This document shows, piece after piece, positions 10,549-48,084 of a DNA stretch of 49,545 nucleotides. The stretch covers positions 1 through 49,545 of the forward strand of contig JAFGIF010000187.1 of assembly GCA_016929755.1 (NCBI GenBank), written 5' to 3'. The DNA is from Deltaproteobacteria bacterium (GTDB lineage Bacteria; Desulfobacterota; Desulfomonilia; UBA1062). The translations under genes were made by a program, and so were the position numbers. The notes under the pieces are model-generated. The model ran no database searches, had not been told where the DNA came from, and was given only the letters and a program-made list of their open reading frames with translations. Each line of letters begins with the position of its first letter. The first letter of the stretch is position 1.

Positions 10549-12678
10549 ATGGCAGCTAATCCATTGCACGTAATCATGAATCCATCATCCATTGCTGTTG
10601 TCGGTGCGAGTAATAATTTCAGCAAAATGGGAACACTCCAGTTGTTAAATATTATTTACAGCGGATTTCCCGGAGAAATTTTTCCTGTTCATCCGACAGA
10701 GAAAGAGATCTTCGGACTCAAGTCATATGCCTGTGTGGCTGATCTTCCATATCCCCCGGCTCTGGCACTTCTGGTTGTACCTACCAGGCTGGTCCCCGAA
10801 CTGCTCGAGGATTTCGGCAAACTGGAAACCCGATATGCCATTATTGTATCCGCCGGATTCAAGGAGACAGGCTCGGCGGGTATTGATCTCGAACAGGAGA
10901 TCGTATCTATAGCAAAATCTTATGGAATTCGTTTTGTCGGACCAAACTGTATGGGTATTGTAAATACGCAACACCCCCTGAATATTTCCGTTCTTCCGGT
11001 AAAGATGCCCGAAGGTGTGCTTAGTATCGCATCCCAGAGTGGAACCTATATAACCCAGACAATGCCTTATCTGCACCGTCAAGGTATAGCTGTCAGCAAG
11101 GCGATCAGTGTGGGGAATGAGGCCAATATCGATATTGTCGATTGTCTTGAATATCTGGGAGAAGACGATGAAACCAATGCAATATGCCTCTACATCGAGG
11201 GCATTCGCAGGGCGGATCGATTTCTCGAGGTTGCGAGACGGATCAGCAAGACCAAACCGATTGTAGCCCAGTATGTCGGCGGCACCAAGTCCGGCGCAAG
11301 ATCCGGTGCCAGTCATACAGGATCGCTTTCCGGTCCGGATTATGTATACGACGGCTTGTTCGCCCAGGCCGGAGTTATCCGGGTGAACACAATTGAAGAG
11401 GTCTATAAAATCGGCTGGACCCTTGCAACCCAGCCGCATCTTAATGGATCCAGAATTGGAGTAATAACACATTCAGGAGGACCAGGTACCGCGATTGTTG
11501 ATATCTGCGACCGTTTCGGAATGGATATTCCCGAATTATCGGGGAGGATTCAGGAAACCATCCGGGACATGGTTCCCGGACATGCGGCAGTTAAAAATCC
11601 GGTTGATCTGACATTCATGGTGGATTTGAAACCCCTTGTAGACGATATTCCCCGGATTATTTTTGCGTCCGATGAGATCGACGGCGTTATTATCCATGGC
11701 ATAATGGATACTGAATTCATGGGCTTCATGCATCCCGTCATCAGTCAGATTTCCGAATTGGAAAAGGAAGCTTTTGCAAAGGGATTTGAAGTAGATCTAA
11801 ATGTTTTGACTCAATTGCCATCAAAGTACAACAAACCGATTGTCGTTTCTTCATTCGTAACCCATCAGGATCACTCGACACAGGTTCTCCAACAGCACCG
11901 TATACCTCAGTTCGATATGCCTGAGAAAGCCGCCAGGGCCATGGCGGCACTTTACCAGCACCACCTCATCCGGAAACGGAAAGAGCCCCAGGCAGTGGAA
12001 TTGATGGAGATTCCTGAACAAGCTGAAAAAATTATGGAGAATCTAACAAACATTTCGGTTGATGAATTCACAGCCAAAGCGATATTGAAGACATACTCTA
12101 TCCCTGTTACCAACGAAGATATCGTACAAACTTTGGAGCAGGCAATGGCTGTTGCAGATAAGATCGGATATCCCGTAGCTCTCAAGGGGTGTTCTCCTGT
12201 TATTCAGCACAAGACAGAACAGGGGATGGTTTTTCTTGATATTAATGATTCAGACGATTTATCACAAGCGTTTGAAAAAATCCGCTCCAAAGATTCAGGA
12301 ATTCCGCTTCTTGTCTCACAGATGCTCAAAGGTGAGCGCGAGTTTATGACCGGCATAAGTTCATTTCCCGGATTCCCGCCCTGTGTCCTGTTTGGTCTCG
12401 GGGGAATTTACACCGAAGCCCTGCATGATATTGCCATACGCCTTGCTCCGTTGGGAAGAGATGATGCCGAAGAAATGATACTCTCGCTTTCTTCAAGCAA
12501 GCTGATCGGGCCCTACCGAGGAATGCCTCCGGTTGACATGGAGGCCCTCTCAAGCATTCTCATGAACTTAAGTCAACTCGCAATCCACTTTCCCCGGATT
12601 AAAGAAATTGACCTCAATCCGATCATAGTGGTAAATGGTAAACCGAAAGTGGCTGATGCGTTATTTATTATGAGCTAA
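10549..12678 (+). CDS. ADP-forming acyl-CoA synthetase, fused alpha+beta (CoA-binding + ATP-grasp)
   Basis: 709 aa. N-terminal CoA-binding fold, His loop GASHTGSLSG, and a C-terminal ATP-grasp-like region (GYPVALKG...). RBS AGGAGG. Confidence 0.85.
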   Translation: MAANPLHVIMNPSSIAVVGASNNFSKMGTLQLLNIIYSGFPGEIFPVHPTEKEIFGLKSYACVADLPYPPALALLVVPTRLVPELLEDFGKLETRYAIIVSAGFKETGSAGIDLEQEIVSIAKSYGIRFVGPNCMGIVNTQHPLNISVLPVKMPEGVLSIASQSGTYITQTMPYLHRQGIAVSKAISVGNEANIDIVDCLEYLGEDDETNAICLYIEGIRRADRFLEVARRISKTKPIVAQYVGGTKSGARSGASHTGSLSGPDYVYDGLFAQAGVIRVNTIEEVYKIGWTLATQPHLNGSRIGVITHSGGPGTAIVDICDRFGMDIPELSGRIQETIRDMVPGHAAVKNPVDLTFMVDLKPLVDDIPRIIFASDEIDGVIIHGIMDTEFMGFMHPVISQISELEKEAFAKGFEVDLNVLTQLPSKYNKPIVVSSFVTHQDHSTQVLQQHRIPQFDMPEKAARAMAALYQHHLIRKRKEPQAVELMEIPEQAEKIMENLTNISVDEFTAKAILKTYSIPVTNEDIVQTLEQAMAVADKIGYPVALKGCSPVIQHKTEQGMVFLDINDSDDLSQAFEKIRSKDSGIPLLVSQMLKGEREFMTGISSFPGFPPCVLFGLGGIYTEALHDIAIRLAPLGRDDAEEMILSLSSSKLIGPYRGMPPVDMEALSSILMNLSQLAIHFPRIKEIDLNPIIVVNGKPKVADALFIMS

Positions 12679-18719: not shown

Positions 18720-19727
18720 TCATGAGATTGATTGCATCTTTACATCGAAACATTCGTGAGCCAATTTGGTAAGTTCAGCCAAGCCCCATCTTCCTTTGTC
18801 GGTAAGAAGTTTTACCATTTCATTGGGTAGGGCGTTCCTTCCGAGAAAGGCTCCGCTGATGGCCCCGGCCATGGCTGCCGTGCTGTCTACATCGCCGCCG
18901 ACACTGATCGCAGTTACGATAGTATCAAGGTAACGCTGCGGGGTATGCAGGAATGAATACAGGCTCCAAAGAACAGTTCCCGTGACAAATGGAGTAAGGC
19001 CCTGCCATTCGTTTGAATATCCCGGGGCATAACCTGCCTGAGCGATCAGGCTCATAGTGTTCTCGGGTGGCATTTCAACCCACTCGGCCAATCGCTTCAG
19101 CGCGTTTGACACTGAAGATTCAATAGGACCGGTCCACTCTGAGAGTTCAATGAGAAAATCTTTTGAATCGAGAGACTTTTTTCTCAGGCAGAGCGCCACG
19201 GCACCCGCAATGGCGACAGAACAGGCACAGCAGCGCGGATCCTGATGCGTTATGCGACTCTGGTCATAGGCAGAGCGAATGAGATCCCCGACATTGTCAA
19301 AGAAAAGAAGCCCTACTGGACCGGCACGCATGGCACTGCCGTTTCCGGCTGATGGGCTCGGTGTACCCGCCTCCTGCCAGGGAGTACCGGCGTCAAGACG
19401 CATAGCAGCCTCGAATGTTGCTCTGCCTGAACCGACAATTCTTCCCCGAGAAAATATATCGGCTATGCGGCGGGCATAATCTCCAGGATCGAACATCTTA
19501 CAATCGCGATAGCTGATGAGTAATTCGCGGGCAAGTTGAGAATCATCGGAATACTGTCCTAAAGGGTATGGTTCTCTCCCCGTCATATTAACTGAAAGCT
19601 TTAACAGTTGTTTTCCATAATCTTTGCAGATTTCATGCTGTGCACCTTCAACAGGAAAGCCAAGGGCATCACCCAGGCTCTGGCCTATAAGACACCCGCT
19701 GAACTGCTCTTTTTTCGGCAGGTCCAT
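18720..19727 (-). CDS. ADP-ribosylglycohydrolase family protein
   Basis: GCLIGQSLGDALGFPVEG and GGDVDSTAAMAGAISGA are typical ARH/DraG-family motifs. Starts 3 nt after the kinase stop. Confidence 0.85.
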   Translation of the reverse strand: MDLPKKEQFSGCLIGQSLGDALGFPVEGAQHEICKDYGKQLLKLSVNMTGREPYPLGQYSDDSQLARELLISYRDCKMFDPGDYARRIADIFSRGRIVGSGRATFEAAMRLDAGTPWQEAGTPSPSAGNGSAMRAGPVGLLFFDNVGDLIRSAYDQSRITHQDPRCCACSVAIAGAVALCLRKKSLDSKDFLIELSEWTGPIESSVSNALKRLAEWVEMPPENTMSLIAQAGYAPGYSNEWQGLTPFVTGTVLWSLYSFLHTPQRYLDTIVTAISVGGDVDSTAAMAGAISGAFLGRNALPNEMVKLLTDKGRWGLAELTKLAHECFDVKMQSIS

Positions 19728-23719: not shown

Positions 23720-24628
23720 TTATTTGTTGTTCAGAAATATTCTCCAGCCAGCCAGCAGTGAGCCTGGAATGAGGTCGAATGCACCCGAGGCCTCGGCAAC
23801 AGGAGTAAAACCGCACTGGCTGCAGTCGATTTCACCCCTGCTTTTCACATAACAACCTTGGGTAATAGTGCCGTCGGGGTCTACATTTGTCAGCAGATGT
23901 TCATGGCATTTCCAGCTATTGTTGATCATGGCTTTCAAAGACCAGGTAGAATTCAGAATCGGGTAACCCTGTCTTTTTAGCATGATTGCACTTTCCATGG
24001 CCAGTCTACGTGTTTTGCGATCAAGTGCCAGCGAAGTTTCGCCCTGGTTGTAGGGGTAGAACAACTGAAGTGTAACTCCTTTAACCTGTGGGATTTGATT
24101 GAGCATATCAAGTAAATTTTCCAACTCCATCCAGTTCTGGTTGTTGATAGTGAAATGAACAAGGATTTTAGGATGAGTTGCTTTCGAAAGGTTTGCTACT
24201 ATCTTGTCAAATGAATTACAGCGCAATCTGTTATGCGTGGATTTGCTGCCATCAATACTGACCCATACAATATCAGTCGGAACATTAAGGTTGAATGTTC
24301 CGTTGGTGGTGACAGCTGTACGCAGAAATTTATTATGTGCAAGTCGGGCCAAATCAGAAAACGTATATTTACCATCTCTCCACATCAGGGGTTCCCCGCC
24401 CTCGAAGACCAGGATCCGACATGCATCATGATACAGACGTTCGATGGATTCAACGGCCGTATTCCAGCTCATGTGGTAGTTTTCCTGTTGAGATCGAAGA
24501 TGAAAAGGGCAGCCTTGGCATGTAAGATTACAGCGGTAGGTCAGCTTGAAACTGGCGATGAGCGCAACTTTCTGCCGCAGAAGTTTTGACCGTAAGAAAA
24601 ATTCTGCAAGTGACGGCAGTACACTCAT
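23720..24628 (-). CDS. radical SAM protein with C-terminal Cys-rich (SPASM/twitch-like) region
   Basis: CNLTCQGCPF CxxxCxxC motif; C-terminal CHEH..GCYVKSRGEIDCSQCGF. The start is ambiguous: ATG at 24628, or TTG at 24679 overlapping the upstream stop. Confidence 0.8.
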   Translation of the reverse strand: MSVLPSLAEFFLRSKLLRQKVALIASFKLTYRCNLTCQGCPFHLRSQQENYHMSWNTAVESIERLYHDACRILVFEGGEPLMWRDGKYTFSDLARLAHNKFLRTAVTTNGTFNLNVPTDIVWVSIDGSKSTHNRLRCNSFDKIVANLSKATHPKILVHFTINNQNWMELENLLDMLNQIPQVKGVTLQLFYPYNQGETSLALDRKTRRLAMESAIMLKRQGYPILNSTWSLKAMINNSWKCHEHLLTNVDPDGTITQGCYVKSRGEIDCSQCGFTPVAEASGAFDLIPGSLLAGWRIFLNNK

Positions 24629-24675
24629 GGCGTCTGCTTTCACATCCAAAGCAAAGTCAGACAAATGCCGTGAAA

Positions 24676-26178
24676 TCAACTGCGTCGACTTTTGGCATAC
24701 CAGACAACTTTCGCAAGGGCTTTCACCGCTGTTTCCGGGCAGGGATAGGCCATGATTCCCTGCTGGTCAAGATAATCGACAGGATTGTTATCAATAGCCA
24801 TGTCGAACATTGCAAGGTCGATAACCGGGATAACGGGTTTGCCGTGTTTTTTGATCAGATCCGTGACCATTTGGAAGAGATTCATTTCCTGGGAGATCAT
24901 GGATTCCGCCTGGCCCTGTGTGAGTTCCTGCGGAATCAATTTCGAATTCTTCCAGCTGATGGCCCTCAGTGTCATGTATCCCAGTCCCATCATGAGAACG
25001 GAATCAATTGCGGAATGTTCCATGAGGATATTAATCGAGTCTGTGATAACTTCAACATGCGATGGGGCTACAAGATCGATGGGGTTGTTTCTGCTCCAGT
25101 AAGCCGGAAGGATTCTGTCGAGTTTCTGTATCAACTCATCATCAAGTGGCTCGACGATCAATCCTTTCCTGAGGCACATGTCAGTGGCAATAACACCCCA
25201 GCCGCCTCCCAGGGTAATGATACCCACCCGGTTGCCTTCGGGAAGGGGCTGAGCGTTCAAGATTCCGGCAACATCTATCATCTCGTCCATGGTTTCCACC
25301 TGAATAATTCCGGCCTGTCTGCACATGGCGCTGAAAACTGTATCATTACTTGCGATTGCGCCCGTATGAGACATGGCGGCCTCGGCACCTTTTTGTGTAC
25401 GGCCGCCCTTGAGCAGGATGATAGGCTTTTCTCTCGAGATTCTCCTGGCGTTGTTAAAAAAGCGCTGGCCATCCCTGATACCCTCGACATACAGGCAAAT
25501 GATGCGAGTTTTTGGGTCCTGCCCAAGGTATTCCAGAAAATCTTCCGTATTGAGATCGCCCTCATTACCTGAACTGATCAGCCGGCTGATTCCGATTTTG
25601 CGGCGCAGCAAACGATAAGAAATGGATGATCCGATATTTCCGCTTTGGGCGATCATACCTACGGAACCGGGTTGCAAGGGTGCTCCGCTCATTAGGATAT
25701 GCATGATAGAAGGGTAGGCGCTGAAAATACCCATAGTGTTGGGACCTGCCAGATGCATTCCCCCGGCACGGGCCACACTGACAATTTCTTTTTCGAGCTC
25801 AGCTCCTTTTGAACCTGTTTCGGAAAATCCGGCTGTTATTATAATTCCAAACGGAATGTTTTTGGCCACGCATTTTTTTACTGTATCAAGCACCAAAGAT
25901 TCTCTGACAACGATGACGACCAGATCGATTGGTTCTGGAATACTATTCAGATCAGGATATACCTCGTGGCCGAACCATGTCCCTCCCTGTGGGTTAACCG
26001 GAAAAACATGGCCTTGAAAACCCCGGTTAACCAGGTGGTGAAGTATTATAAAACCCCATTTAAATATATTATTTGAGGCGCCGATAAAGGCGATCGTTCT
26101 CGGTTCGAAAAGGGAATTCAGCTTCGGCATACTTTCGAGAGTTGAAGGTTGCCCGTAAAGACTTGCATGTTCATTCAT
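24676..26178 (-). CDS. CoA-binding protein, NDP-forming acyl-CoA synthetase alpha-type (no ATP-grasp domain)
   Basis: 500 aa. IAFIGASNN..VFPVNP CoA-binding fold and His loop AMSHTGAIAS. RBS GGGGGGAA. Confidence 0.8.
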   Translation of the reverse strand: MNEHASLYGQPSTLESMPKLNSLFEPRTIAFIGASNNIFKWGFIILHHLVNRGFQGHVFPVNPQGGTWFGHEVYPDLNSIPEPIDLVVIVVRESLVLDTVKKCVAKNIPFGIIITAGFSETGSKGAELEKEIVSVARAGGMHLAGPNTMGIFSAYPSIMHILMSGAPLQPGSVGMIAQSGNIGSSISYRLLRRKIGISRLISSGNEGDLNTEDFLEYLGQDPKTRIICLYVEGIRDGQRFFNNARRISREKPIILLKGGRTQKGAEAAMSHTGAIASNDTVFSAMCRQAGIIQVETMDEMIDVAGILNAQPLPEGNRVGIITLGGGWGVIATDMCLRKGLIVEPLDDELIQKLDRILPAYWSRNNPIDLVAPSHVEVITDSINILMEHSAIDSVLMMGLGYMTLRAISWKNSKLIPQELTQGQAESMISQEMNLFQMVTDLIKKHGKPVIPVIDLAMFDMAIDNNPVDYLDQQGIMAYPCPETAVKALAKVVWYAKSRRS

Positions 26179-26261: not shown

Positions 26262-26990
26262 TCAACCATCGTTGAGTTTTTTCCGGTAGGACTCACGCAT
26301 GCTTTTCAGGTCTGTGGCTTCAACGCAAACGTCCTGGTATTCGCATGTGTCACAATCAAAGTCCATTTCCTGGGCCATCTTGTTCATGGCAGCGATAATC
26401 CTGGTCGTATCATGCGTTATTGCAGCCAGTTTGCGTATGTCCTGCGGGCTGGATGTCACCAGGATGCATTCTACCGCTGCTACAAAATTTAGTTTTTTGA
26501 AATTCCGGATCTGTTTTGATGCAAGCACATCAAAACAGAATCCCTCATCAAGTGCCTCATGGCTGATTCGGCACCATTCACGCTTGAACTGTGAAACAGC
26601 CCTGAGCATGTAACCCTTTAGATCGAGTCCATACCGGACCAGTTCCATTTCACGGTAGCGCTCATACGTGTTTTCTGCGTCAAAGCCGCTGACTTCAATT
26701 AGCACGATTTTACCGAATGGCAGGCTTGCCCCTCGGCTTTCCGGCAGGTCAGGGCCAATCAGGGTAATGTAATTGTCTCTGATTGTGCCTATTTTTTCAG
26801 TCCAGAGTATACAGGAAACTGATTCCATCTGGGGATTTCCCAGCTCGACGGCCATATCGCTTCCCAAAACGACATTTCGGCCCCGGCCTGAAGGCCAGTT
26901 GGTGTCCGGACTGGCCGGCCATGATCTGGGGTTGTCTTTGTGTGCCAGAAAATCCCGGAGATCATAGATTGTGTCTGCAAAAAGTTCCAT
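26262..26990 (-). CDS. stand-alone homologue of the central domain of acetyl-CoA synthase (AcsB/CdhC-like), C-terminal CxxCx5C
   Basis: 242 aa. GSDMAVELGNP...ITLIGPDLPE...LPFGKIVLIEV...W.RISHEALDEGFCF...VT resembles, from memory, the Moorella AcsB middle domain (GDMYVEMGGN...IEVIGPDIDQ...LPLGILVDIY...WLRVSKDAVAKGFRF). The ATG abuts the upstream stop. Confidence 0.55.
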   Translation of the reverse strand: MELFADTIYDLRDFLAHKDNPRSWPASPDTNWPSGRGRNVVLGSDMAVELGNPQMESVSCILWTEKIGTIRDNYITLIGPDLPESRGASLPFGKIVLIEVSGFDAENTYERYREMELVRYGLDLKGYMLRAVSQFKREWCRISHEALDEGFCFDVLASKQIRNFKKLNFVAAVECILVTSSPQDIRKLAAITHDTTRIIAAMNKMAQEMDFDCDTCEYQDVCVEATDLKSMRESYRKKLNDG

Positions 26991-27776
26991 CTAGGATCTG
27001 TCCTGTAGCGCTTTTCGGGCAACCAGGGCTGCGCCGAGGGCTCCATTGATTTGTGGATCCAACCCGGTTTTTGTGAGATTTCTCCCCAGGGCCGCTTCGA
27101 GGGCCGCAACCATGCCCGGATTTTTTGCAACGCCACCGGTAAAGGCAATGTGCTCTTCCAGTTCGATACTCTTGGCAAGTGCTGCAACACGGTGGGCCAG
27201 TGCTCTATGCAGGCCACTGATAATATCGGGCGGGGACGTCCCCTCATTGACAAGGGAGATAATTTCTGTTTCGGCAAAAATTACACACTGGTTAGAAATA
27301 GTAACCGGAGATTTTGAAGTTTGCGATACCCTGCCCATTTCTTCAATACCAATACCAAGAGCATCGGCCATGACCTCAAGGAAACGCCCGGTGCCGGAAG
27401 CACATTTGTCATTATAAATATATCGGATTACATTACCGTGGGCATCCAGTCGGATGGCCTTGGCATCCTGACCGCCGATATCGATCACCATGCGTATGGA
27501 TGCATCTTTCCACTGGGCACCCTTGCCATGACATGAAATTTCTGATTCGACAGCATCAGCAAACGGGATTTGATTGCGACCGTAGCCGGTTCCCACACAA
27601 TACGCAATTGAATCCACTAAGACTCCCGCCTGCTTGAGTGCCAGATCCATGACTTGTCTGGCCGATGTTTCAGGTTCGGGTGCGTCCTGAATAATCTGTG
27701 AAGCGAGAATGTTATTTTCATCCAGGATGACAGCCTTGGCAGTCAGAGAACCCAAATCACATCCGGCAACTATCAT
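26991..27776 (-). CDS. BcrAD/BadFG/HgdC-type activase ATPase (subunit 2)
   Basis: MIVAGCDLGS acetate/sugar-kinase fold start. Cluster cysteines in NDKCASGTGRFLE and SNQCVIFAETE. ATGA overlap with the upstream gene. Confidence 0.9.
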   Translation of the reverse strand: MIVAGCDLGSLTAKAVILDENNILASQIIQDAPEPETSARQVMDLALKQAGVLVDSIAYCVGTGYGRNQIPFADAVESEISCHGKGAQWKDASIRMVIDIGGQDAKAIRLDAHGNVIRYIYNDKCASGTGRFLEVMADALGIGIEEMGRVSQTSKSPVTISNQCVIFAETEIISLVNEGTSPPDIISGLHRALAHRVAALAKSIELEEHIAFTGGVAKNPGMVAALEAALGRNLTKTGLDPQINGALGAALVARKALQDRS

Positions 27777-28564
27777 GGATTTTCTCCTGTATACATTTGT
27801 TTGGCTATAATAGCCGCCCCGAGGGCCCCCATAATTTGAGGATCAAACTTCAATCGTTTGATTTTCACACCCAGCATTTTTTCAAGATGGCGAACTACCC
27901 CGGTATTTTTGGCTACACCCCCGGTCATACACACATCTTTTTCCAGGCCGACGTTGCCCACGAGAATGGCAACCCTGCCGGCCATGGCCCGGTTGATGGC
28001 TTCGGCAATATCACCTTTCGACTTCCCAATATTCAGGTGATGAATTACTTCGGCCTGGGCCCAGACAGTACAGGCCGATGAAAGTGTAAGTGGTTCCTGG
28101 TTTTGCCCGCCTTTTAGACCCCCGAGTTCATCAATCGCCACTCCCAGAAGCTTGGCCATGACCTCCAGAAATCTGCCGGTACCGGCGGCACATTTATCAT
28201 TTGTGGTAAATTTCTGGATGGTTCCTTCTTTATCGATTCTAATGGCCTTGCAATCCTGGCCGCCGATATCTATAACCGTCCGCACACGGGGCATAACCCA
28301 CAGGGCACCTTTTCCATGGCAGGTAATTTCCGATACCGCCTCTTGAATAAATGGGATCTTGTTGCGTCCATAGCCGGTACCCACACAGCACATAACCTGT
28401 TCCTCATGCACGGCTGCCTTTTTCAGAGCCAGCTCAAAAACCTCCCTGGCTGATTCTTCCGGTCTGGTTTTCGATCTGATAACACAATAACCCAAAACAT
28501 TTTTGTTGTTGAGAATTAAGGCCTTGCTGGTAAGTGAGCCGACATCGCACCCCGCAACGATCAT
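27773..28564 (-). CDS. BcrAD/BadFG/HgdC-type activase ATPase (subunit 1)
   Basis: MIVAGCDVGS; NDKCAAGTGRFLE and SSACTVWAQAE. ATGA overlap with the upstream gene. Confidence 0.9.
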   Translation of the reverse strand: MIVAGCDVGSLTSKALILNNKNVLGYCVIRSKTRPEESAREVFELALKKAAVHEEQVMCCVGTGYGRNKIPFIQEAVSEITCHGKGALWVMPRVRTVIDIGGQDCKAIRIDKEGTIQKFTTNDKCAAGTGRFLEVMAKLLGVAIDELGGLKGGQNQEPLTLSSACTVWAQAEVIHHLNIGKSKGDIAEAINRAMAGRVAILVGNVGLEKDVCMTGGVAKNTGVVRHLEKMLGVKIKRLKFDPQIMGALGAAIIAKQMYTGENP

Positions 28565-29964
28565 GCTCCGATCCTCCTTAATGAAATAAACTCGTTTAAT
28601 TTATCCGTTATTGATTCCCATGACTGCACCCTGTCATCAAACCCATCGGCATACAAAACAAGGGTAGGGTAGCCCGCCTTTTCAAGGTCGCGCGCAATGC
28701 ACTTGATTACACCCCAGGTATTCCGGCAGCCCATGGTGCCGACATACACAATGAAATCGACATTGAGCACTCTGGCGGCCCCCAGGGTATCATCGAGCAT
28801 CATCCCCGGTGCATCATACGGGCCCCGTATCTGCTTGACCATGGGCATGCGCGAAACCTGGTCAGCCAGCGAATCGATGATAGCCTCATCCGAGCTGTCG
28901 TCTATATCGTACGTCTGGTCCTGTTTTTCTTTTGCGTACACTACATCTTTTTGCCAGAAGGTGAACAGCATTGAGCCCAACATGCTGATATCGTGCTCAT
29001 CGATCCAGTACCAGAAACGGGCATTCGTGGTATAGTGATCGATATAACAGAACAGAGCTCTGGCTTTTTCCCTGCCCGAAAGGGTGCCGGACAGATTTTT
29101 ATCGGCGATTCCTTTTGCGGTTTGCAGCATTGATTCCAACAGCAGAGTGTATTCTCTGGTGCCACCCATCATAAACTTGCCGCCATAGAGCATCAGATCG
29201 TACATGCCGGGCAGCGGCGAAGGGACCAGGCTGGCCAGATCAAAAAGCTCGCAGGCAATCTCGTCCTGTCTTTTAATCTCGCCAACGATTTCTTTGAGAC
29301 GTGCGAAATCAAGTTTTTTGCCGGTCTGCTTTTCCAGAAAGGTAATCAGGTTGCGGAAGTCTCGCCGGTGATATTTTGTAGCCCGCTCGTCGCTGAGAGT
29401 AGGAGGGCTGTTGAGCTGAAACATGGGTTTGTCGAGAAAGGCCGAGGCAAATGCAAAGGAATTGGCATTGGTGTCACAGATGCCGGGAGAATCAAACACG
29501 ATAAAATCGGGTTGTGTGCATAAACCGGCCAGGTAGGCGCCAAGGGCTCCGCGCTGAGCTGAACAGGATGTCTCGGTAAAACCAACTTCGCAGCAGTAAT
29601 CCAGGAATTCAGTTGTGCCGCGACGCAGTACAATTGTACCCAGTACGGTCCAGACTTCGAGACACATGGGCACGATATCAAAAGCATACAGGATCGGGGG
29701 TGCCATGCAGAACGATGTCAGGGCCGTGAATTTGCCGTTTTCCTTGGAAGTTACACACATTTTCATGTAGCCGGCCATCAGTTTCAGGAAGATATCACCG
29801 GGCTGGCCAAAGCGCATGAATGCTTCCAATACAGGCCCGTAGTGCGGCACATATTTCAAGAGATTGTGATACTCCTTGCAAAAGCCTTCATTGGTTTTTG
29901 AGGCGCATTCCAGGATGGTCCAGAGATTCCAGTCGTAATTATATTCCATGGTCTCGCGTTTCAT
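28561..29964 (-). CDS. 2-hydroxyacyl-CoA dehydratase / benzoyl-CoA reductase BcrB/BzdO-like large subunit (paralogue B)
   Basis: 467 aa. Conserved cysteines in YCCEVGFTETSCS, GICDTNANSF, FCYIDHY and GTMGCRNTWG. Confidence 0.8.
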   Translation of the reverse strand: MKRETMEYNYDWNLWTILECASKTNEGFCKEYHNLLKYVPHYGPVLEAFMRFGQPGDIFLKLMAGYMKMCVTSKENGKFTALTSFCMAPPILYAFDIVPMCLEVWTVLGTIVLRRGTTEFLDYCCEVGFTETSCSAQRGALGAYLAGLCTQPDFIVFDSPGICDTNANSFAFASAFLDKPMFQLNSPPTLSDERATKYHRRDFRNLITFLEKQTGKKLDFARLKEIVGEIKRQDEIACELFDLASLVPSPLPGMYDLMLYGGKFMMGGTREYTLLLESMLQTAKGIADKNLSGTLSGREKARALFCYIDHYTTNARFWYWIDEHDISMLGSMLFTFWQKDVVYAKEKQDQTYDIDDSSDEAIIDSLADQVSRMPMVKQIRGPYDAPGMMLDDTLGAARVLNVDFIVYVGTMGCRNTWGVIKCIARDLEKAGYPTLVLYADGFDDRVQSWESITDKLNEFISLRRIGA

Positions 29965-30002: not shown

Positions 30003-31409
30003 TCAATGCGCACCAATACGACGCAGTTTCATAAATTCATCCATACGATCCGTTATTGCTTCCCATGATTGAATCCTGTCATCAAAGGCGTCTGCATACA
30101 GGACCAGGCACGGGATGCCGTAGCGTTCGAGGTCACGCGTAAATGGTTTTACCATGCCCCAGGTATTCCGGCAGCCCATAGTTCCGATATAGACCACAAA
30201 GTCGGTCTTCAGAAGACTGGCAGCACCCAGGGTATCGTCCAACCACATGCCCGGTGCATCGTAGGGCCCCCTTATCGATTTAACCATGGGCATTCGTGAT
30301 ACCTGGTCAGCCAGGGAGTCGATCATGCCCTCGAGACTGTGATCGTCGATACAATAGCCCTGTTCCTCTTTAGAATGTGCCTGGGGATTGTCGGCCTGCC
30401 AGAAATTATACAGGATGGAACCCATGTGGCTAATTTCATGCGAGTCGAGCCAGTCCCAGAACCTGACATCGGTGGTGTAGTGATCGATGTAACAGAACAA
30501 TCCGCGGGCCTTCTCCCTTGTCGATGTAGTGCCGGCAATGCCGAGTCTGGAATTTTTCCTGGTAACAGCGAGCATGGCCTCGAGCAATTCGGAATACTCG
30601 CTGGTTCCACTCATGAGGAATCTTCCTGAATACAAAAACAGATCATATATAGGCGGCATTGGGCAGGGAATCAGTCGCTGCAGTTCCATCAGTTCGATAG
30701 CCAGCTCATCCTGGCGTTTGACGTGCTCAATGATTTGGGAAAGCCTTGAAAGGTCGAGTTTTTTGCCGGTCTGTTTTTCGAGGAATTCAATCAGACTGTG
30801 GAAATCCTGGCGGTGATAGCGGCGGGCCCGTTCATCGGTGAGCGTAGGCGGAAAGTTCAGCTGAAAAAAAGGGATATCGAGATAGGCCGAGGCAAAGGAA
30901 AATGAGTTTGCATTGGTATCACAGATGCCGGGCGAGTCGCAGATAATGAAATCGATGTCTACTCCCAGCCCGGCCAGGTATGCACCCAGCGCACCGCGTT
31001 GAGATGAGCAGGATGTTTCGGTAAAGCCCAGTTCGCAGCAGTAATCCATAAACTCTCCGGTTCCGCGCTGCAGTATTACGGTGCCGAACACACTCCAGGG
31101 CTCGAGTATCAGGGGCTGGACATCAAACGCATACAGGATGGGGGCGGCAAAACAGAATGTTGAGGCAGCTATTTTTCTGCCTTCTGCATAGGCCTGGATG
31201 CAATTGCGCGTGTAGGAAGCCAGCAGCTTTAAAAAGAGAATACCCGGTTCGCCGTGCCTGACGAATGCTTCCAGAACCCCCCGGAAATTCGGTATAAGTG
31301 AAAGCAGATGCTGATACTCTTTTTCAAAGCCGTCGTATGCGCGCGATGCGTTTTCAACGATGGTCCACAGGTTCCAGTCGTAGTTGTATTCCCTGGATTC
31401 CTTTCGCAT
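30003..31409 (-). CDS. 2-hydroxyacyl-CoA dehydratase / benzoyl-CoA reductase BcrB/BzdO-like large subunit (paralogue A)
   Basis: 468 aa. Collinear with the 467-aa neighbour, with well over half the positions identical by eye. Same Cys motifs. RBS AAGGAGAG. Confidence 0.8.
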   Translation of the reverse strand: MRKESREYNYDWNLWTIVENASRAYDGFEKEYQHLLSLIPNFRGVLEAFVRHGEPGILFLKLLASYTRNCIQAYAEGRKIAASTFCFAAPILYAFDVQPLILEPWSVFGTVILQRGTGEFMDYCCELGFTETSCSSQRGALGAYLAGLGVDIDFIICDSPGICDTNANSFSFASAYLDIPFFQLNFPPTLTDERARRYHRQDFHSLIEFLEKQTGKKLDLSRLSQIIEHVKRQDELAIELMELQRLIPCPMPPIYDLFLYSGRFLMSGTSEYSELLEAMLAVTRKNSRLGIAGTTSTREKARGLFCYIDHYTTDVRFWDWLDSHEISHMGSILYNFWQADNPQAHSKEEQGYCIDDHSLEGMIDSLADQVSRMPMVKSIRGPYDAPGMWLDDTLGAASLLKTDFVVYIGTMGCRNTWGMVKPFTRDLERYGIPCLVLYADAFDDRIQSWEAITDRMDEFMKLRRIGAH

Positions 31410-31421
31410 TCAAACTCTCCT

Positions 31422-31652
31422 TTACAGATTCATGTTGAGGGTGGCACCCTCTTTGATGCGGCTGATATAAAAACCGGCCCGTTCCTTTAGTATGCCCACA
31501 TCAGTTTTCTTTGAGATGTTTTTGAGTGCCTTGAGTGCTGACTCGTGAAACAGCGTCAGGGCATCGATGGACCGTTGCCTTTCAGCCAGAATGCGGTTTG
31601 AATCAAGGGCAATTTTTTTTAACACCTCAATGGTAATCGCTTCGGTATCCAT
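31422..31652 (-). CDS. small helical protein (76 aa), HEAT-repeat-like
   Basis: Good RBS (AGGGAAGGAA). Sits between dehydratase-family genes with 12- and 17-nt gaps. No cysteines. Confidence 0.5.
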   Translation of the reverse strand: MDTEAITIEVLKKIALDSNRILAERQRSIDALTLFHESALKALKNISKKTDVGILKERAGFYISRIKEGATLNMNL

Positions 31653-31669: not shown

Positions 31670-32800
31670 TCAGATTTTTTCCAGAAATGCGTCGATACGC
31701 ATTTTGACCCTGCCGGATTCGACCAACGGTCCGTACTCCCGCTCCATTTTCAGGCAGGCAATGCCCGCTGCCTCGAGATCGCGCACAAAGATGCCGTTTT
31801 CAGAACCATGCAGATCACAAAAGCGGATGTTCTGCAGGATCACTCCATCGACCCTAGCCTCGACAACCTTCTGCTTGATGAAATTCAGGCGCTCTTTATA
31901 GTACCCGAACATGCGCGGACAGTAGGCATGATTTAAATACCTTTTTGCCAGAGCCTTTACGGGATCAGTGGTTTCTTCAACCAGATCATGGTGTGTTCTG
32001 GATCCAAAACACATGCTGTCGGCAACGATCACGGCACCGCAGTCTTCGATTACCTTGAAAAAGTCAAGATCATCATTAATGCTGCCCACTATCATCAGGC
32101 GTTTTCGTCCCGGTATGATCTTGCAGGTGGTTTCAATGTTATCCAGAAACCCGCTAAGAATTGGAATATACGTTTCTTTTGGCATGGCTGTGTTTGCAAC
32201 GACCAGAGCCAGGGCATCCTCGCCGGTTATTCTGCAATCTTCACCGATTTTGATTTGATCCAGCTGCTTCAAGAGACGGCGGCCTTGGTTGTAGAGTTTT
32301 ATCGAATTGTTCAGGTCTTGATCCGTAACAGAGATCGAAAAATGCTCTTCAATACTTTTGATGAAAAGTTGAATTTCCTCTTCAAACCATTGAAGGCTGT
32401 AATCCGTGACCTTGTGCGGCACCCCGAAGTAGTGGAAATACCCGGGCCGGATACCCGGGATATCTTTATCCGCCTTTCGCCAGCATTCATCAAGGCGGCG
32501 CATGGAATCACAGCCGTTTGACATCACGGTCCCGTCGAGGAAGGAGTATTTTTTGTTTCCGGCCAGTTCAAGCACGCATTTCGGGAAACTGCAGATTACC
32601 GGGCCGAAATAGGTGTCACCTACGGAAAGTGATGAAATGCCGATACCCCGCAAACGAAACGGCAACAGACCGGCAGCATGAATAATCTCTTCGGGTACAT
32701 AGGTGCACGGATAACCAACAACGAATTTACCGGATTTTTTCCAGGCCTCGACATACTCATTGAAAATACTTCGGGCTACCTGCTTGAAGTTTTCGATCAT
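31670..32800 (-). CDS. 2-hydroxyacyl-CoA dehydratase / benzoyl-CoA reductase HgdB/BcrC/BzdN-like small subunit
   Basis: 376 aa. YPCTYVPEEIIHAAGLLPFR, SNGCDSMRR, YCPRM and RFCDLH are typical of the HGD-D family. ATGA overlap with the upstream gene. Confidence 0.85.
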   Translation of the reverse strand: MIENFKQVARSIFNEYVEAWKKSGKFVVGYPCTYVPEEIIHAAGLLPFRLRGIGISSLSVGDTYFGPVICSFPKCVLELAGNKKYSFLDGTVMSNGCDSMRRLDECWRKADKDIPGIRPGYFHYFGVPHKVTDYSLQWFEEEIQLFIKSIEEHFSISVTDQDLNNSIKLYNQGRRLLKQLDQIKIGEDCRITGEDALALVVANTAMPKETYIPILSGFLDNIETTCKIIPGRKRLMIVGSINDDLDFFKVIEDCGAVIVADSMCFGSRTHHDLVEETTDPVKALAKRYLNHAYCPRMFGYYKERLNFIKQKVVEARVDGVILQNIRFCDLHGSENGIFVRDLEAAGIACLKMEREYGPLVESGRVKMRIDAFLEKI

Positions 32801-34086
32801 GATTCACTCCAGTTTGCTGCAAGCATGGAGCGCAAGGCCTGCAAGGCCTCTTCCATTTCGTCTGTATGATCGATATCAGTTGAGCCAATCAATTCACACA
32901 AGCCCAGGATCAATGGGGGCAAGAGTTCTGTAACAACAGGAGTGAGAGCGTCTGATACTTCCGGGATCAACCACTCACAGGTATCCTTAAGCGCAGATGT
33001 ATCGATTGAATCGGCGAAATCCTTAAGCAGTCCACCAAAGAGTTCGGGCCTGACTGTATGCATACGGTTGATTATTGAGAGCAAAGAATTCGTAATATCG
33101 GCCATCTTCTGGGTATCAATGTCAGAAATGCCGCTGTTGGCAGCTTCTGCAAATTCATCATCCAGGTCGTCATAGAAAGCAATTTTGTGGGAAACGCTGC
33201 GGATGCCGGGATTTTTCAGTGCTGCATATGATTTCATGCTAAAAAGCAGGGTCTGCGGGTTCTGGCTGAGAACATTGGCCAAAGAACTGGCGATGGTTTC
33301 CTTGTCCTCAGCAAGAGCAATGCGGGACTTGGTGAGTATTTCCGGATCGATAGCGGCAAGGAAATCGTTAAGAAAGTCTAAAAGATAAAATTCGAAAAGT
33401 GATTTGTCGCCTTTTGCCAGCAGTGCACTGCCGGTATGCAGCCTCCTGATCAGCTCGGATATTGAATTGGTCAGTTTCGCTGTTTCTTCTCCACTTAGTT
33501 CACGCAAGATCGAAAGCAGAATATCGGCGGTCAGGTCAGGGCCAAGGTTCTGTAAGAGCGGTCGTATGATTTCAGAAAGACCCTTGATCGATGTGTTACC
33601 GATAGACAGTAAAATTCCCACCAGACAACCGATTTTAGCCGGGTAGGGCCAGATTGCATTATTGATCGATTCAAGAGTCTTCAGCAGGCACGCTTCTGAG
33701 CCTTCCACCAGTTCTTTCAGTTCCCCGAAGTCAGTATGGCCTATCAGATCGGTTATCGATCCAGTGCGTTCTTCGGCATGGCAAACCGGATTCTTCTGGT
33801 GGGCGGCATTGATGTTCCTGGCATAGTTGGTAAGAAGGTCACCCAGGTCACAGGAAAGTGTTGCATTGTTTTGCGGTGATTCATTTTTCAGTGAGCGGGA
33901 AATAAGCCCATTAAAAGGTTTGGCGATTTTTTGCCGTATCCGACTGCCCAGCGACCACTGGCCGAGTATATCACGGGCGATGCAGAGAATCAGCCTTCTG
34001 GGTCCAGCGGAAAACAGCGCCCTGGATATGATCTTGCTGGTCTGATCTGTCAGATTACCTGCATCCTGCCGGCTTAATTCATTCAT
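32797..34086 (-). CDS. helical protein of unknown function (long paralogue)
   Basis: ATG at 34086 has GGAGG 9 nt upstream; the track start at 34095 is a TTG abutting the RBS. Shares a module with the 214-aa and 144-aa proteins upstream. Confidence 0.6.
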   Translation of the reverse strand: MNELSRQDAGNLTDQTSKIISRALFSAGPRRLILCIARDILGQWSLGSRIRQKIAKPFNGLISRSLKNESPQNNATLSCDLGDLLTNYARNINAAHQKNPVCHAEERTGSITDLIGHTDFGELKELVEGSEACLLKTLESINNAIWPYPAKIGCLVGILLSIGNTSIKGLSEIIRPLLQNLGPDLTADILLSILRELSGEETAKLTNSISELIRRLHTGSALLAKGDKSLFEFYLLDFLNDFLAAIDPEILTKSRIALAEDKETIASSLANVLSQNPQTLLFSMKSYAALKNPGIRSVSHKIAFYDDLDDEFAEAANSGISDIDTQKMADITNSLLSIINRMHTVRPELFGGLLKDFADSIDTSALKDTCEWLIPEVSDALTPVVTELLPPLILGLCELIGSTDIDHTDEMEEALQALRSMLAANWSES

Positions 34087-34178
34087 ATTATTCAACCTCC
34101 AATGTATTATAATCGTGTCAGTTTCGTGAAACCTGATGCTTCATCACATTACAAATTCTTTTTTGCCGGGTTTACTCC

Positions 34179-34918: not shown

Positions 34919-35563
34919 CTATATTAATTTAGCAAAGCGTTTACGCAGCCTTGTGATCAGGAGCTTGCCGCTCCACGGCAGGATCGGAAACAGTTTCAGA
35001 TCCAGCAGGGCATGGGCCATTACCTGGGCCGCATCACTGAGTTCGTCGGTATCGAGGTTGCTGATCACATCGGAAACAAATGTGCCTATGCTTTGAGGAT
35101 CATCTCTGCTGAGGTCATTGATCCGGGTAGTTATTGCATTTATACTCTCTGCAATAATACCCGGTCCCCTCTCCATGATACTCTGCTTTAGTTCGGGTGA
35201 ATTCCTCCATGCATCTGTTGCCAGCTTGTTGATTGCCTGCCCGCACGCTTTTAGAGAATCCTGATTGATATCATCAACAAGACTCGTGGTAAATTGAACT
35301 AAAAGCCGGGGTGAAAATTTGTCGCCCATTTCGCTGACAAGTTGAAAAACCGTATGTATCCCCGAGTTGATCAAGGCGGGCAGGGTTGCAATGAGTGCCA
35401 GGGTCAGCTCAGGATCCTGCCACAGGTTGGTTGGTTTGCAATGGCTGTAATCCTTTGAGACCATAGAACGCATTTGTACACGCAGCATGTCCTTGATAAA
35501 CGGGGTGCTGATAAGCTCTTTCAGAATACCGACGTGCTTGTTTCCATCAGTGGATATCTGCAT
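34919..35563 (-). CDS. helical protein of unknown function (214-aa paralogue)
   Basis: LWQDPELTLALIATLPALINS...MGDKFSPRLLVQFTTSLVDDIN parallels the 144-aa protein. TAATG coupling with the upstream gene. Confidence 0.55.
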   Translation of the reverse strand: MQISTDGNKHVGILKELISTPFIKDMLRVQMRSMVSKDYSHCKPTNLWQDPELTLALIATLPALINSGIHTVFQLVSEMGDKFSPRLLVQFTTSLVDDINQDSLKACGQAINKLATDAWRNSPELKQSIMERGPGIIAESINAITTRINDLSRDDPQSIGTFVSDVISNLDTDELSDAAQVMAHALLDLKLFPILPWSGKLLITRLRKRFAKLI

Positions 35564-35997
35564 TATGGTTGGCCTTTGTCTTGAGTTACTGAATCATGAC
35601 CGGCTTGCTGCAGCAACTCTTTCAATAGCGGAGAGAGATCCCGTGCCAGTGGTTGTAGGTTTTGAATGATGCGCTGCAGTCTGACTGCATCAATTTCATC
35701 AAGCAGCGATCCCACGAATCCGGCCAGCAAATCCGGGGTAAATTTATCATGGATCTGTATAAGCAGTTCATCAATGGCCCTGATCAGAGAGTTTGCTACA
35801 CCAGGAAGTGCCCCCAGAAGCCCCAGGCTCACTTCGATATCCTGCCATAGCAGAGTTTTTACCAGTTCAGGGCTTGATTCAGGATCAATGTTTTTCAGCG
35901 TGATACGCAGATTTTCTTTGAACTCAGGCTTATTCAGAAACCCGGCCAGCATCCGGTTGGTAGTATTGATAACACCTCTGTTATGGTTGGCATGCAT
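35563..35997 (-). CDS. helical protein of unknown function (144-aa paralogue)
   Basis: LLWQDIEVSLGLLGALPGVANS...IHDKFTPDLLAGFVGSLLDEID. The AGGAGA RBS lies inside the end of the upstream acyl-CoA dehydrogenase gene. Confidence 0.55.
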   Translation of the reverse strand: MHANHNRGVINTTNRMLAGFLNKPEFKENLRITLKNIDPESSPELVKTLLWQDIEVSLGLLGALPGVANSLIRAIDELLIQIHDKFTPDLLAGFVGSLLDEIDAVRLQRIIQNLQPLARDLSPLLKELLQQAGHDSVTQDKGQP

Positions 35998-47122: not shown

Positions 47123-47140
47123 TTTCCCCTCTCATCCCTG

Positions 47141-47374
47141 TTAAAGCTGTGTGCTCTTATCTTCCAGAAACTTAATCAATGATTCCACGGGATAGGCAAT
47201 TCTTCTTTTCCCGATACGTACTCGATCCTTTACGCCTTTCCCCATGCAATCCAGGTTTGCCATAGTTCTGGGATTCAATATTCCACCGGAAAATTTGCCG
47301 ACTTCGCTTCTTGCTACCAAAGCCGACGGCCACTGTTCTGCCATTTTTGTAAAATCAAAATTTGCTCGTTTCAT
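47141..47374 (-). CDS. excisionase/AlpA-like small DNA-binding protein
   Basis: 77 aa, GGAGG RBS. The pattern ARSEVGKFSGG..NPRTMANL...RIGKRRIAYPVESLIKFLE resembles excisionase-type HTH proteins. Confidence 0.5.
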   Translation of the reverse strand: MKRANFDFTKMAEQWPSALVARSEVGKFSGGILNPRTMANLDCMGKGVKDRVRIGKRRIAYPVESLIKFLEDKSTQL

Positions 47375-47440
47375 AAAAAAAACCTCCGTTCTTATTTTGT
47401 GATCACGGATGTAATCTTATGAAAACAAACGTAAAGAATC

Positions 47441-47492
47441 TTGGGAAACAAATGCGGCACTTATTTCCCTGATAAGGTTGGCTTTGGGAAAT
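47441..47492. promoter_or_regulatory. candidate operator triplet (GGGAAA / TTTCCC / GGGAAA)
   Basis: TTGGGAAA at 47441-47448, ATTTCCC at 47463-47469 and TTTGGGAAAT at 47483-47492, at ~21-22 bp spacing in the intergenic region upstream of the excisionase-like gene. Confidence 0.3.
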
Positions 47493-47565
47493 GTTTTAGA
47501 AACGGGTTCTGAAAATTCTATTTCATAAAACCAGCATATTGAAATTTTTTAACACATTAAGATAT

Positions 47566-48084
47566 TTATTTTTTAGCAGCAATTAGATTATTATTTTCAT
47601 CATACAATGAGTCTATTTCTCTCTGAACTTCCGAAGCGGCCTTTACAGCCTGTTGAGCTTTTTTATAGAGTTTTTCTACTGTTGCAGAGTGATCCCCACT
47701 ACCGATCATATCTTTACCAATGTCATAAAATATGCTTCCCTTTTGACCCCTGGTACGGGTTTCCATTTCTTCACGAACCCTATCATAAACAACCATCATA
47801 AAACTGAAAGAGTGTCTATATCTGTCCTCAAACGTGGAAAAACATCGAGCATCATTAAATCCCAAAGCGTTCTTAATCATAACGCCAGCTTTGCCGGTTG
47901 GTGGATTCAATTCTAATATTTTTTCTGAGGATCGCCCTAGATACCTCATAACCCATTTTGGTAAGCTCTTTTCGGCTTTCCAACATTCATTAATTTTTTT
48001 CCATGCTAATAAGGGGTTTTTAGGCACTCCATCTTCAAAATCATCTAGTTCATAATTAAAATCGAGCATTATTTCTTTATCCAT
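47566..48084 (-). CDS. hypothetical protein (172 aa), abuts the integrase gene
   Basis: The ATG at 48084 directly abuts the integrase stop (48085-48087). No recognisable motif. AT-rich coding sequence. Confidence 0.55.
   Translation of the reverse strand: MDKEIMLDFNYELDDFEDGVPKNPLLAWKKINECWKAEKSLPKWVMRYLGRSSEKILELNPPTGKAGVMIKNALGFNDARCFSTFEDRYRHSFSFMMVVYDRVREEMETRTRGQKGSIFYDIGKDMIGSGDHSATVEKLYKKAQQAVKAASEVQREIDSLYDENNNLIAAKK

Follow-up and report, generated by a model that had tools for sequence, protein, structure and literature searches.

A stand-alone homologue of the acetyl-CoA synthase middle domain encoded with a benzoyl-CoA-reductase-like enzyme and usually paired with a CooC/AcsF-type ATPase

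Why should an operon for an ATP-driven enzyme resembling benzoyl-CoA reductase (BCR) also encode a piece of acetyl-CoA synthase (ACS), and what might that piece do there? The question is raised by a stretch of 49,545 nucleotides from a Deltaproteobacteria bacterium (contig JAFGIF010000187.1, positions 1 to 49,545; the window), in which an open reading frame (ORF) of 242 amino acids (aa) at 26262..26990 on the minus strand encodes a homologue of the ACS middle domain that stands alone and carries a C-terminal Cys motif, here called CdhCL (CdhC-like protein) and assigned by ORF, Pfam, PDB profile and Foldseek analyses. An earlier note, made from the letters alone, had described this ORF as having its ATG directly abutting an ATPase stop and had quoted blocks of its sequence as parallels to the middle domain of Moorella AcsB. 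The ORF is present as described: its ATG at 26988-26990 (reading 'cat' on the plus strand) comes straight after the TAG stop at 26991-26993 ('cta' on the plus strand) of the gene for a 261-aa Q-like ATPase. All quoted blocks occur in the translation, i.e. GSDMAVELGNP (aa 43-53), ITLIGPDLPE (aa 75-84), LPFGKIVLIEV (aa 90-100), WCRISHEALDEGFCF (aa 139-153), LVTS (aa 177-180) and DCDTCEYQDVC (aa 212-222). The protein does not end with the Cys motif, as the note had it; 20 further residues, predicted to be helical, come after C222.

The core of CdhCL (aa 42-194; 26409..26867, minus strand; hidden Markov model (HMM) alignment, translation checked) is homologous to the A2, or middle, domain of ACS. 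The Pfam family CdhC (PF03598) matches aa 42-179 over profile positions 15-150 of 155 with an E-value of 2.4e-11 and 44.2 bits, above the gathering cutoff of 24. In the 705-aa AcsB-type models of NCBIfam the match covers positions 310-456, which is the middle domain, and the equivalog cutoffs are missed (42 bits against 356 for cdhC and 41 against 800 for CODH_ACS alpha/beta). The earlier note had proposed profile and structure searches as a check on its alignment. Against the PDB, a profile of 31 family members found ACS chains only (E 2.4e-10), aligning aa 42-194 of CdhCL to residues 334-482 of Moorella AcsB and 18-164 of M. thermophila CdhC; with a more distant sister subfamily added, the E-value fell to 2.8e-18 and the alignment became longer at both ends, beginning at about ACS residue 312, roughly where the middle-domain match starts. 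In Foldseek searches with an AlphaFold2 (AF2) model of CdhCL (pLDDT 84.5, pTM 0.84), every one of the 23 matches at E<=1e-3 was an ACS chain, the best having an E-value of 1.4e-11 and a TM-score of ~0.57 with a root-mean-square deviation of ~3 Å over ~170 columns; the next match had an E-value of 0.4. In total, Pfam, NCBIfam, PDB profiles and Foldseek agree on a resemblance that goes far beyond chance.

The two-subfamily profile also reaches the CxxC of CdhCL, where, as the note had supposed, the A-cluster motif of AcsB starts. In this alignment '..ldCdsCey' stands opposite 'YSCLLCQS' of C. hydrogenoformans ACS (end 510) and 'YGCTLCQS' of M. thermophila CdhC (aligned end at residue 194), and C213 and C216 are thus aligned to the first two Cys of the A-cluster cubane. 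Because the aligned range in Moorella ACS (1oao) stops at residue 510, we place C213/C216 on its Cys506 and Cys509, which we take to be the first two cubane ligands of the A-cluster. When the C-terminal 59 aa of CdhCL were compared alone with PDB sequences, the matches were spurious zinc fingers with E>1; the Cys link to ACS needed the two-subfamily profile. As several independent methods agree, the alignment of the note proves to have been correct, the Cys point included. Sequence and alignments also agree with the note that the Cys motif is partial and that CdhCL contains no Cys-Gly-Cys of the Ni site, no N-terminal (A1) CODH-docking domain and no A3 (A-cluster) domain. Judged by sequence and alignment, CdhCL is a stand-alone descendant of ACS that comprises the A2 domain together with the initial segment of the A-cluster loop in which the cubane is bound.

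Truncated with respect to ACS and missing the Ni site, CdhCL might be regarded as a decaying remnant of an ACS gene or a functionless chance ORF. The conservation pattern of the family excludes this explanation, to which we assign practically no probability. A protein search returned 334 relatives, nearly all stand-alone and ~244 aa long, and the whole representative library contains at least 220 clusters (50% identity) at E<=1e-30 and 523 at E<=1e-10, nearly all of full length (230-270 aa). Among sequences of ~50% identity 26 residues are invariant, including E49-L50-G51, W63, D123, G126, E138-W139-x-R141-x-S143, E208, C213, C216, Y218 and C222, and synteny is conserved across phyla. The family occurs in Desulfobacterota (Smithella, Syntrophaceae, Desulfomonilia), Spirochaetota, Chloroflexota and Binatia, and the sister subfamily (557 matches) comes from Chloroflexi, Dehalococcoidia, Binatia and others. 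The relatives are annotated as 'hypothetical' by NCBI or as 'CO dehydrogenase/acetyl-CoA synthase beta subunit' by IMG.

The genomic context of the family was surveyed with one genome per species: 143 genomes have a CdhCL relative, and 80 loci, all from metagenome-assembled genomes (Smithella, Syntrophaceae, Desulfomonilia, Desulfobacteraceae, Spirochaetota and others), were fetched and annotated with phmmer. Within 10 kb of CdhCL there is a gene for a BcrAD-type ATPase in 72 of the 80 loci and a gene for an HGD-D protein, the family of the catalytic subunits (BzdN-like and BzdO-like; N and O), in 71; most of the other loci lie on short contigs. CdhCL and the ATP-driven BcrAD/HGD-D enzyme are closely linked; the earlier note had proposed such a survey of co-occurrence with the ATPases. 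The ATPase gene lies directly upstream in 59 of 73 evaluable loci, and in 4 more a gene for a 434-aa polyferredoxin-domain protein lies between the two. On the other side, directly downstream of CdhCL, 69 of 77 evaluable loci have a gene for a MinD/ParA-superfamily ATPase of the CooC/AcsF type. The closest PDB match of this ATPase is CooC1 of C. hydrogenoformans (E 1.1e-17), to which its P-loop and CxC metal-binding motif align, and the CxC motif is invariant in 69 orthologues. The sole clear exception in the 80 loci is an orphan family member (L069, 10001..10723, plus strand) beside recC/recB, a gene for a PilZ-LuxR regulator and a SET-domain gene, with no ATPase, HGD-D or CooC-like gene within 10 kb. 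Together these data show that CdhCL is a conserved, dedicated part of a BCR-like enzyme system: with few exceptions its gene closes an operon that resembles those of BZD-type class I BCRs, and in most loci a CooC/AcsF-type ATPase gene accompanies it.

The gene orders in the sister subfamily indicate which of these neighbors is the more constant. In two sister loci (L090 and L091) the order is ATPase, N, O, CdhCL, CooC-like; in a third (L092) it is N, O, ATPase, CdhCL, CooC-like; a fourth, truncated locus has HGD-D, CdhCL and CooC-like, and in a fifth CdhCL lies ahead of N and O. Thus, CdhCL follows the O-like gene in two of the three sister loci with full context, the activase gene lying elsewhere in the module, and the CooC-like gene is next to CdhCL in four sister loci. 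Because adjacency to the activase gene holds in the subfamily of the window and, among the sister loci, only in L092, we regard CdhCL and the CooC-like ATPase as the constant pair. The activase ATPase is correspondingly weakened as a candidate for the primary partner of CdhCL. Of the coupling to the activase ATPases claimed in the earlier note, the linkage stands for the subfamily of the window, but the CooC/AcsF-type ATPase is the more constant neighbor.

Two further genes were observed in the sister loci. A gene for a CooT-family nickel chaperone lies just upstream of the ATPase/HGD-D/CdhC-like/CooC-like module of L090 (5246..5434, plus strand); it is found in this one of 92 loci and neither in the other 91 nor in the window, and a nickel link via CooT is not used here as evidence. 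In L091 (10639..15190, plus strand) the CdhC-like/CooC-like pair is followed by genes for a molybdopterin oxidoreductase (986 aa) and a four-cluster ferredoxin subunit, and the module has evidently been recruited into different pathways.

What CdhCL may contribute to the enzyme system is suggested by its Cys motif. The putative [4Fe-4S] binding loop, E208-x4-C213-x2-C216-x5-C222 (26325..26369, minus strand), was delineated by HMM alignment to ACS, family conservation and translation, and its three Cys are invariant in the 31-sequence set as well as in a 17-sequence alignment of both subfamilies. In the main subfamily 113 of 117 sequences have no fourth Cys, and the residue at position -5 from the first Cys is Glu in 111 and Asp in 2; all 117 sister-subfamily sequences have a fourth Cys, the motif being C-x3-C-x2-C-x5-C in 112 and C-x5-C-x2-C-x5-C in 5. 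In Moorella ACS the A-cluster cubane is ligated by C506, C509, C518 and C528, i.e. with the spacing C-x2-C-x8-C-x9-C. By comparison with these four ligands, CdhCL has beyond C213 and C216 one more Cys, giving the different spacing C-x2-C-x5-C, plus E208 at -5, and the sister subfamily has four Cys, but again with a spacing unlike that of ACS. From these sequence patterns we infer that a [4Fe-4S] cluster is ligated by four Cys in the sister subfamily and by three Cys plus a carboxylate in the main subfamily. Since it is spacing (E-x4-C as compared with C-x3-C or C-x5-C) that suggests the equivalence of E208 and the fourth Cys, we put this equivalence forward tentatively.

A redox role for this site is supported by (i) the Cys pattern itself, (ii) a relative (P0110) with a C-terminal fusion to a 2x[4Fe-4S] ferredoxin domain, (iii) the flavodoxin and ferredoxin neighbors of the relatives, in which a gene for an EFR1 flavodoxin-ferredoxin or for the 434-aa polyferredoxin-domain protein adjoins CdhCL, and (iv) the absence of a CxxCxxCxxxCP ferredoxin motif, as expected of a BzdM-type donor, from CdhCL and from the whole 49.5-kb window; this motif was seen only as the fused domain in P0110. 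Genes of the EFR1 and polyferredoxin types are likewise absent from the window. In many loci (e.g. L001, 11516..17204) the CdhCL/CooC-like pair is followed by a second module consisting of an EFR1-type flavodoxin-ferredoxin, an N-like and an O-like subunit, the 434-aa protein with its 2x[4Fe-4S] domain and a single ATPase, and these two-module relatives have a single pair of CdhCL and CooC-like genes between their N/O modules; the window has no such second module.

Combining the Cys motif with the genomic context, we tentatively favor, with less than even confidence, a model in which CdhCL is a [4Fe-4S] accessory redox protein that would feed electrons into the ATP-driven enzyme and whose center would normally be matured by the CooC-like ATPase. 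In this model, (i) E208, C213, C216 and C222 would hold one [4Fe-4S] cluster, held by four Cys in the sister subfamily; (ii) the CooC-like ATPase would install or mature this center in most lineages, by analogy with AcsF for ACS; (iii) CdhCL would act as a dedicated low-potential redox partner that receives electrons from ferredoxin- or flavodoxin-type donors; and (iv) it would pass them to the ATPase dimer, from which they would be driven, at the cost of ATP, into the catalytic clusters of N and O. In the window, the operon would have no other small Fe-S protein, and CdhCL would take the place of a BzdM-type ferredoxin. Ordinary E. coli suffices for BzdNO to obtain its [8Fe-9S] and [4Fe-4S] clusters (PMC11971306), and we therefore consider it more likely that the CooC-like factor is needed for CdhCL than for N and O.

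A second conserved element of CdhCL points toward CoA. The motif W139-C-R141-I-S143 (26562..26576, minus strand; alignments, family conservation and translation) has as its aligned counterparts 'NWLRVS' in Moorella ACS and 'TWVRIS' in C. hydrogenoformans ACS, and all 234 members of the two subfamilies have the pattern W-x-R-[IVL]-[SNG]. In the ACS of C. autoethanogenum, acetyl-CoA is bound mainly on the A2 domain with its adenine stacked on Trp405, the main chain of Gly399 touches the ligand, and Arg383 and His386 have been proposed to function in acetyl transfer (bioRxiv 10.1101/2024.08.05.606187). The corresponding spacing, R-x2-H-x12-G-x5-W, is exact in Moorella ACS (R404, H407, G420 and W426 in 3i04 numbering). 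According to the HMM alignments, W139 of CdhCL is the equivalent of the adenine-stacking Trp405 and R141 that of the Arg two residues later; the Arg383/His386 pair is not conserved, the aligned residues in CdhCL being, depending on the alignment, L117 or E116 and Y120 or R119. Given the conservation of W139/R141 and the loss of the Arg/His pair, the nucleotide-binding part of the CoA surface appears to have been kept and the catalytic residues not. In the model that we favor, CdhCL may also use its retained W139-x-R141 surface to hold the ADP moiety of CoA or of a CoA-thioester substrate. Electron entry and CoA-thioester binding, the two functions suggested in the earlier note, are both plausible.

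Alternatively, CdhCL could be a non-redox subunit, either CoA-thioester-binding or regulatory, that presents or senses the acyl-CoA substrate, with a Cys motif that is structural (Zn or Fe) or used for docking alone. Besides the invariant Trp and Arg, the operon context is in agreement with this idea in that CoA-thioester metabolism is represented by acyl-CoA dehydrogenases and an acyl-CoA synthetase. However, the acetyl-transfer pair of ACS is lost, BzdO and HadB themselves bind CoA substrates, the four-Cys motif of the sister subfamily and the ferredoxin fusion indicate a redox cluster, and the CooC-like partner would be left unexplained. We consider this alternative improbable.

Several observations weigh against the model of CdhCL as an accessory redox protein. 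There is no CooC-like gene in the window, in the identical operon of an 85%-identical relative or in locus L004, and the different gene orders in the two subfamilies mean that a specific contact between CdhCL and the activase ATPase is not implied. Three Cys and a carboxylate are an unusual ligand set for a [4Fe-4S] cluster, MAFFT sets E208 and the fourth Cys of the sister subfamily in different columns, and the confidence of the AF2 model is low in the Cys loop (pLDDT 60-76). The ferredoxin fusion is the single one among the proteins listed in three protein searches, and the conservation of W139 and R141 could be structural. Moreover, a role in maturation would account equally well for the constancy with which CdhCL is paired with a CooC-type ATPase.

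That role has been taken up in a further alternative, in which the CooC-type metallochaperone and CdhCL form a maturation pair. CdhCL would be a scaffold or adaptor for building or repairing the metal center of N and O and would stand outside the working enzyme. This scenario, which we regard as rather unlikely, accounts for the CooC-like gene being the most constant neighbor in both subfamilies, for the conserved CxC metal-binding motif of a protein whose closest structural match is CooC1, and for the single pair of CdhCL and CooC-like genes shared between two N/O modules. It agrees less well with the assembly of the BzdNO clusters in E. coli without such factors, with the retention of CdhCL in the lineage of the window, where no CooC-like gene is adjacent, with the occurrence of CooT in just one locus of 92, and with the start of CdhCL abutting the ATPase stop, which suggests expression at subunit-like levels.

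In a bolder version of the metal hypothesis, CdhCL would carry a Ni-containing 'mini A-cluster': C216, which we take to be the equivalent of the cubane-Ni bridging Cys509 of ACS, would tie the cubane to Ni or another heterometal inserted by the CooC/AcsF-like ATPase, and the site would perform acyl-CoA chemistry of its own. The alignment of C213/C216 to the first two cubane Cys of ACS, the CxC motif of the partner ATPase and the retained CoA-contacting Trp and Arg are compatible with such a center, but CdhCL has neither Cys-Gly-Cys nor another conserved Cys or His for Ni, it lacks both the A3 domain and the catalytic Arg/His pair, and the window has no CooC-like gene. We consider this version highly improbable. 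If true, it would mean that a branch of the BCR/dehydratase superfamily has a second CoA-thioester site, of an organometallic type, that is fed with ATP-boosted electrons; we know of no such combination in enzymology.

To which enzyme, then, does CdhCL belong in the window? On the minus strand the gene order is two acyl-CoA dehydrogenases, a 144-aa and a 214-aa protein, a TetR regulator, a 432-aa protein, a 376-aa HGD-D subunit, a 76-aa ORF, a 468-aa and a 467-aa HGD-D subunit, two BcrAD ATPases and CdhCL, followed by an ADP-forming acyl-CoA synthetase alpha-type protein, a radical SAM protein and an amidohydrolase. A scan of the operon for promoters and terminators gave counts no higher than in shuffled controls, and the minus strand has no terminator-like site.

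The coordinates of the enzyme genes, all on the minus strand, are as follows. The BzdN/DCCP-like HGD-D subunit of 376 aa (31670..32800; Pfam E 1.6e-81) has six invariant Cys (C32, C70, C97, C264, C294 and C328 in 53 orthologues), and its best NCBIfam match, double_cubane, scores 171.8 bits, below the cutoff of 350. The BzdO/HadB-like HGD-D subunit of 467 aa (28561..29964; Pfam E 4e-48) has invariant C134, C163 and C413 (56 orthologues) and is a paralogue of the second BzdO-like HGD-D subunit of 468 aa (30003..31409; Pfam E 4.5e-43), the two matching each other with 716 bits; relatives have one or two copies. The BcrAD/BadFG-type ATPases are a P-like protein of 263 aa (27773..28564; Pfam E 1.9e-55) and the Q-like protein of 261 aa (26991..27776; Pfam E 9.7e-55). 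Each has three invariant Cys, C82, C125 and C164 (Q-like) or C165 (P-like), counted over 53-61 orthologues of the operon proteins, and C125 with C164/C165 is taken to be the pair that holds a bridging cluster. In the BZD-type enzyme, BzdN carries an [8Fe-9S] cluster on six Cys, BzdO a [4Fe-4S] cluster on three Cys and a water, and BzdPQ a bridging cluster (PMC11971306). The pattern of the host enzyme, with six Cys in the N-like subunit, three in the O-like subunit and two per ATPase subunit for a bridging cluster, corresponds to this type. All scores are far below the Bzd/Bcr equivalog cutoffs of NCBIfam (BzdN, 141 bits against 454; BzdO, 26 against 449; BzdQ, 192-214 against 380, the Q-like ATPase having the 192), and we therefore describe the host enzyme as BZD-type-like and not as orthologous.

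Several accessory genes on the same strand are conserved with the enzyme. The 76-aa ORF between the N-like and O-like genes (31422..31652) has no Pfam match; 30 related loci have a homologue at this position, gene calls for it exist in L004 and L093, and its product may be a small extra subunit. The 432-aa protein (32797..34095), which has no conserved Cys, is encoded directly upstream of the N-like gene, as it is in ~50 related loci; neither it nor the 214-aa (34919..35563) and 144-aa (35563..35997) proteins have a Pfam or NCBIfam match, and the three, all of them upstream of the enzyme genes here, have counterparts in 42-51 related loci. The gene for the 500-aa ADP-forming acyl-CoA synthetase alpha-type protein (24676..26178, minus strand; Pfam and NCBIfam) fills the slot downstream of CdhCL that is occupied by the CooC-like ATPase in most relatives, and it does likewise in the 85%-identical relative.

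How does this system compare with those already described? With the A2 domain of ACS (AcsB/CdhC), CdhCL shares a common fold and sequence homology over ~150-200 residues, the W-x-R-[IV]-S motif including the adenine-stacking Trp, a CxxC on the first two cubane Cys and, in most relatives, the pairing with a CooC/AcsF-type ATPase. It differs from ACS in being a stand-alone protein of 242 aa without A1, A3, the Cys-Gly-Cys Ni site and the Arg/His pair, and in being encoded with a BCR-like enzyme and not with CO dehydrogenase (CODH), corrinoid iron-sulfur protein or methyltransferase genes, none of which turned up in the scanned ORFs of the window or in the related loci that were inspected. The CooC-like partner of the relatives has the P-loop and CxC motif of the CooC/AcsF proteins of CODH/ACS, but it is encoded with HGD-D/BcrAD enzymes, and its gene is absent from the window. 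The operon of the window resembles the BZD-type BCR of Aromatoleum (BzdNOPQ with the ferredoxin BzdM) in its N-like, O-like and two ATPase genes and in its CoA-thioester context; it differs in having no ferredoxin gene, in its low equivalog scores and in extra conserved genes that are absent from described BCR systems, i.e. those for CdhCL, the CooC-like ATPase (in relatives) and the 432-, 214-, 144- and 76-aa proteins. The double-cubane cluster proteins (DCCP/DCCP-R) and the 2-hydroxyacyl-CoA dehydratases with their activators belong to the same superfamily of ATP-driven low-potential electron injection with Fe-S proteins of the HGD-D fold, but the 376-aa subunit scores 172 bits against the DCCP cutoff of 350, and in the literature searched neither system comes with an accessory protein derived from ACS or resembling CooC.

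ATP-driven BCRs, 2-hydroxyacyl-CoA dehydratases and double-cubane proteins catalyze some of the lowest-potential reductions in biology and have been described as systems of two modules, a catalytic dimer and an ATPase activator, with a ferredoxin as donor. In the literature searched, no BCR, 2-hydroxyacyl-CoA dehydratase or DCCP system is described with an accessory protein that is ACS-derived or CooC-like, in line with the earlier remark that this combination was not known to be described. The domain assignment is not new, as the Pfam domain is recognized automatically; no earlier description appears to exist of the CdhCL family, the variants of its Cys motif, its synteny or its CooC-like partner. 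A widespread branch of these enzymes thus carries two further conserved components of CODH/ACS ancestry, by which the ACS middle domain gains a role outside the Wood-Ljungdahl pathway, and the question is raised what a BCR-like enzyme requires a CooC-type metallochaperone for. Among syntrophic and hydrocarbon-associated anaerobes the host operon is abundant. The IMG label is a mis-annotation of the CdhCL family from which false calls of Wood-Ljungdahl capacity in metagenome bins are possible.

Among the neighboring genes of the window, those for the 500-aa synthetase, which lacks an ATP-grasp domain, and the radical SAM protein, which has a partial match to DUF3463, overlap by 4 bp (23720..26178, minus strand); both genes are found again side by side in L028, whereas L034 has the radical SAM gene only. 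Two more genes for acyl-CoA synthetase alpha-type proteins are present at 570..1946 and 10549..12678.

A gene for an ADP-ribosylglycohydrolase (18720..19727, minus strand; Pfam E 5.5e-60) lies ~6.5 kb downstream of the cluster, and a homologue is found near the cluster also in L004/L005/L039 and L034, but not in the other loci. The gene recalls the control of the nitrogenase Fe protein by DraG, but its location may be a coincidence. The final part of the window, 44567..49308 on the minus strand, encodes a DUF3987 protein (851 aa) and a tyrosine integrase (407 aa) and probably represents an inserted mobile element with no relation to the operon.

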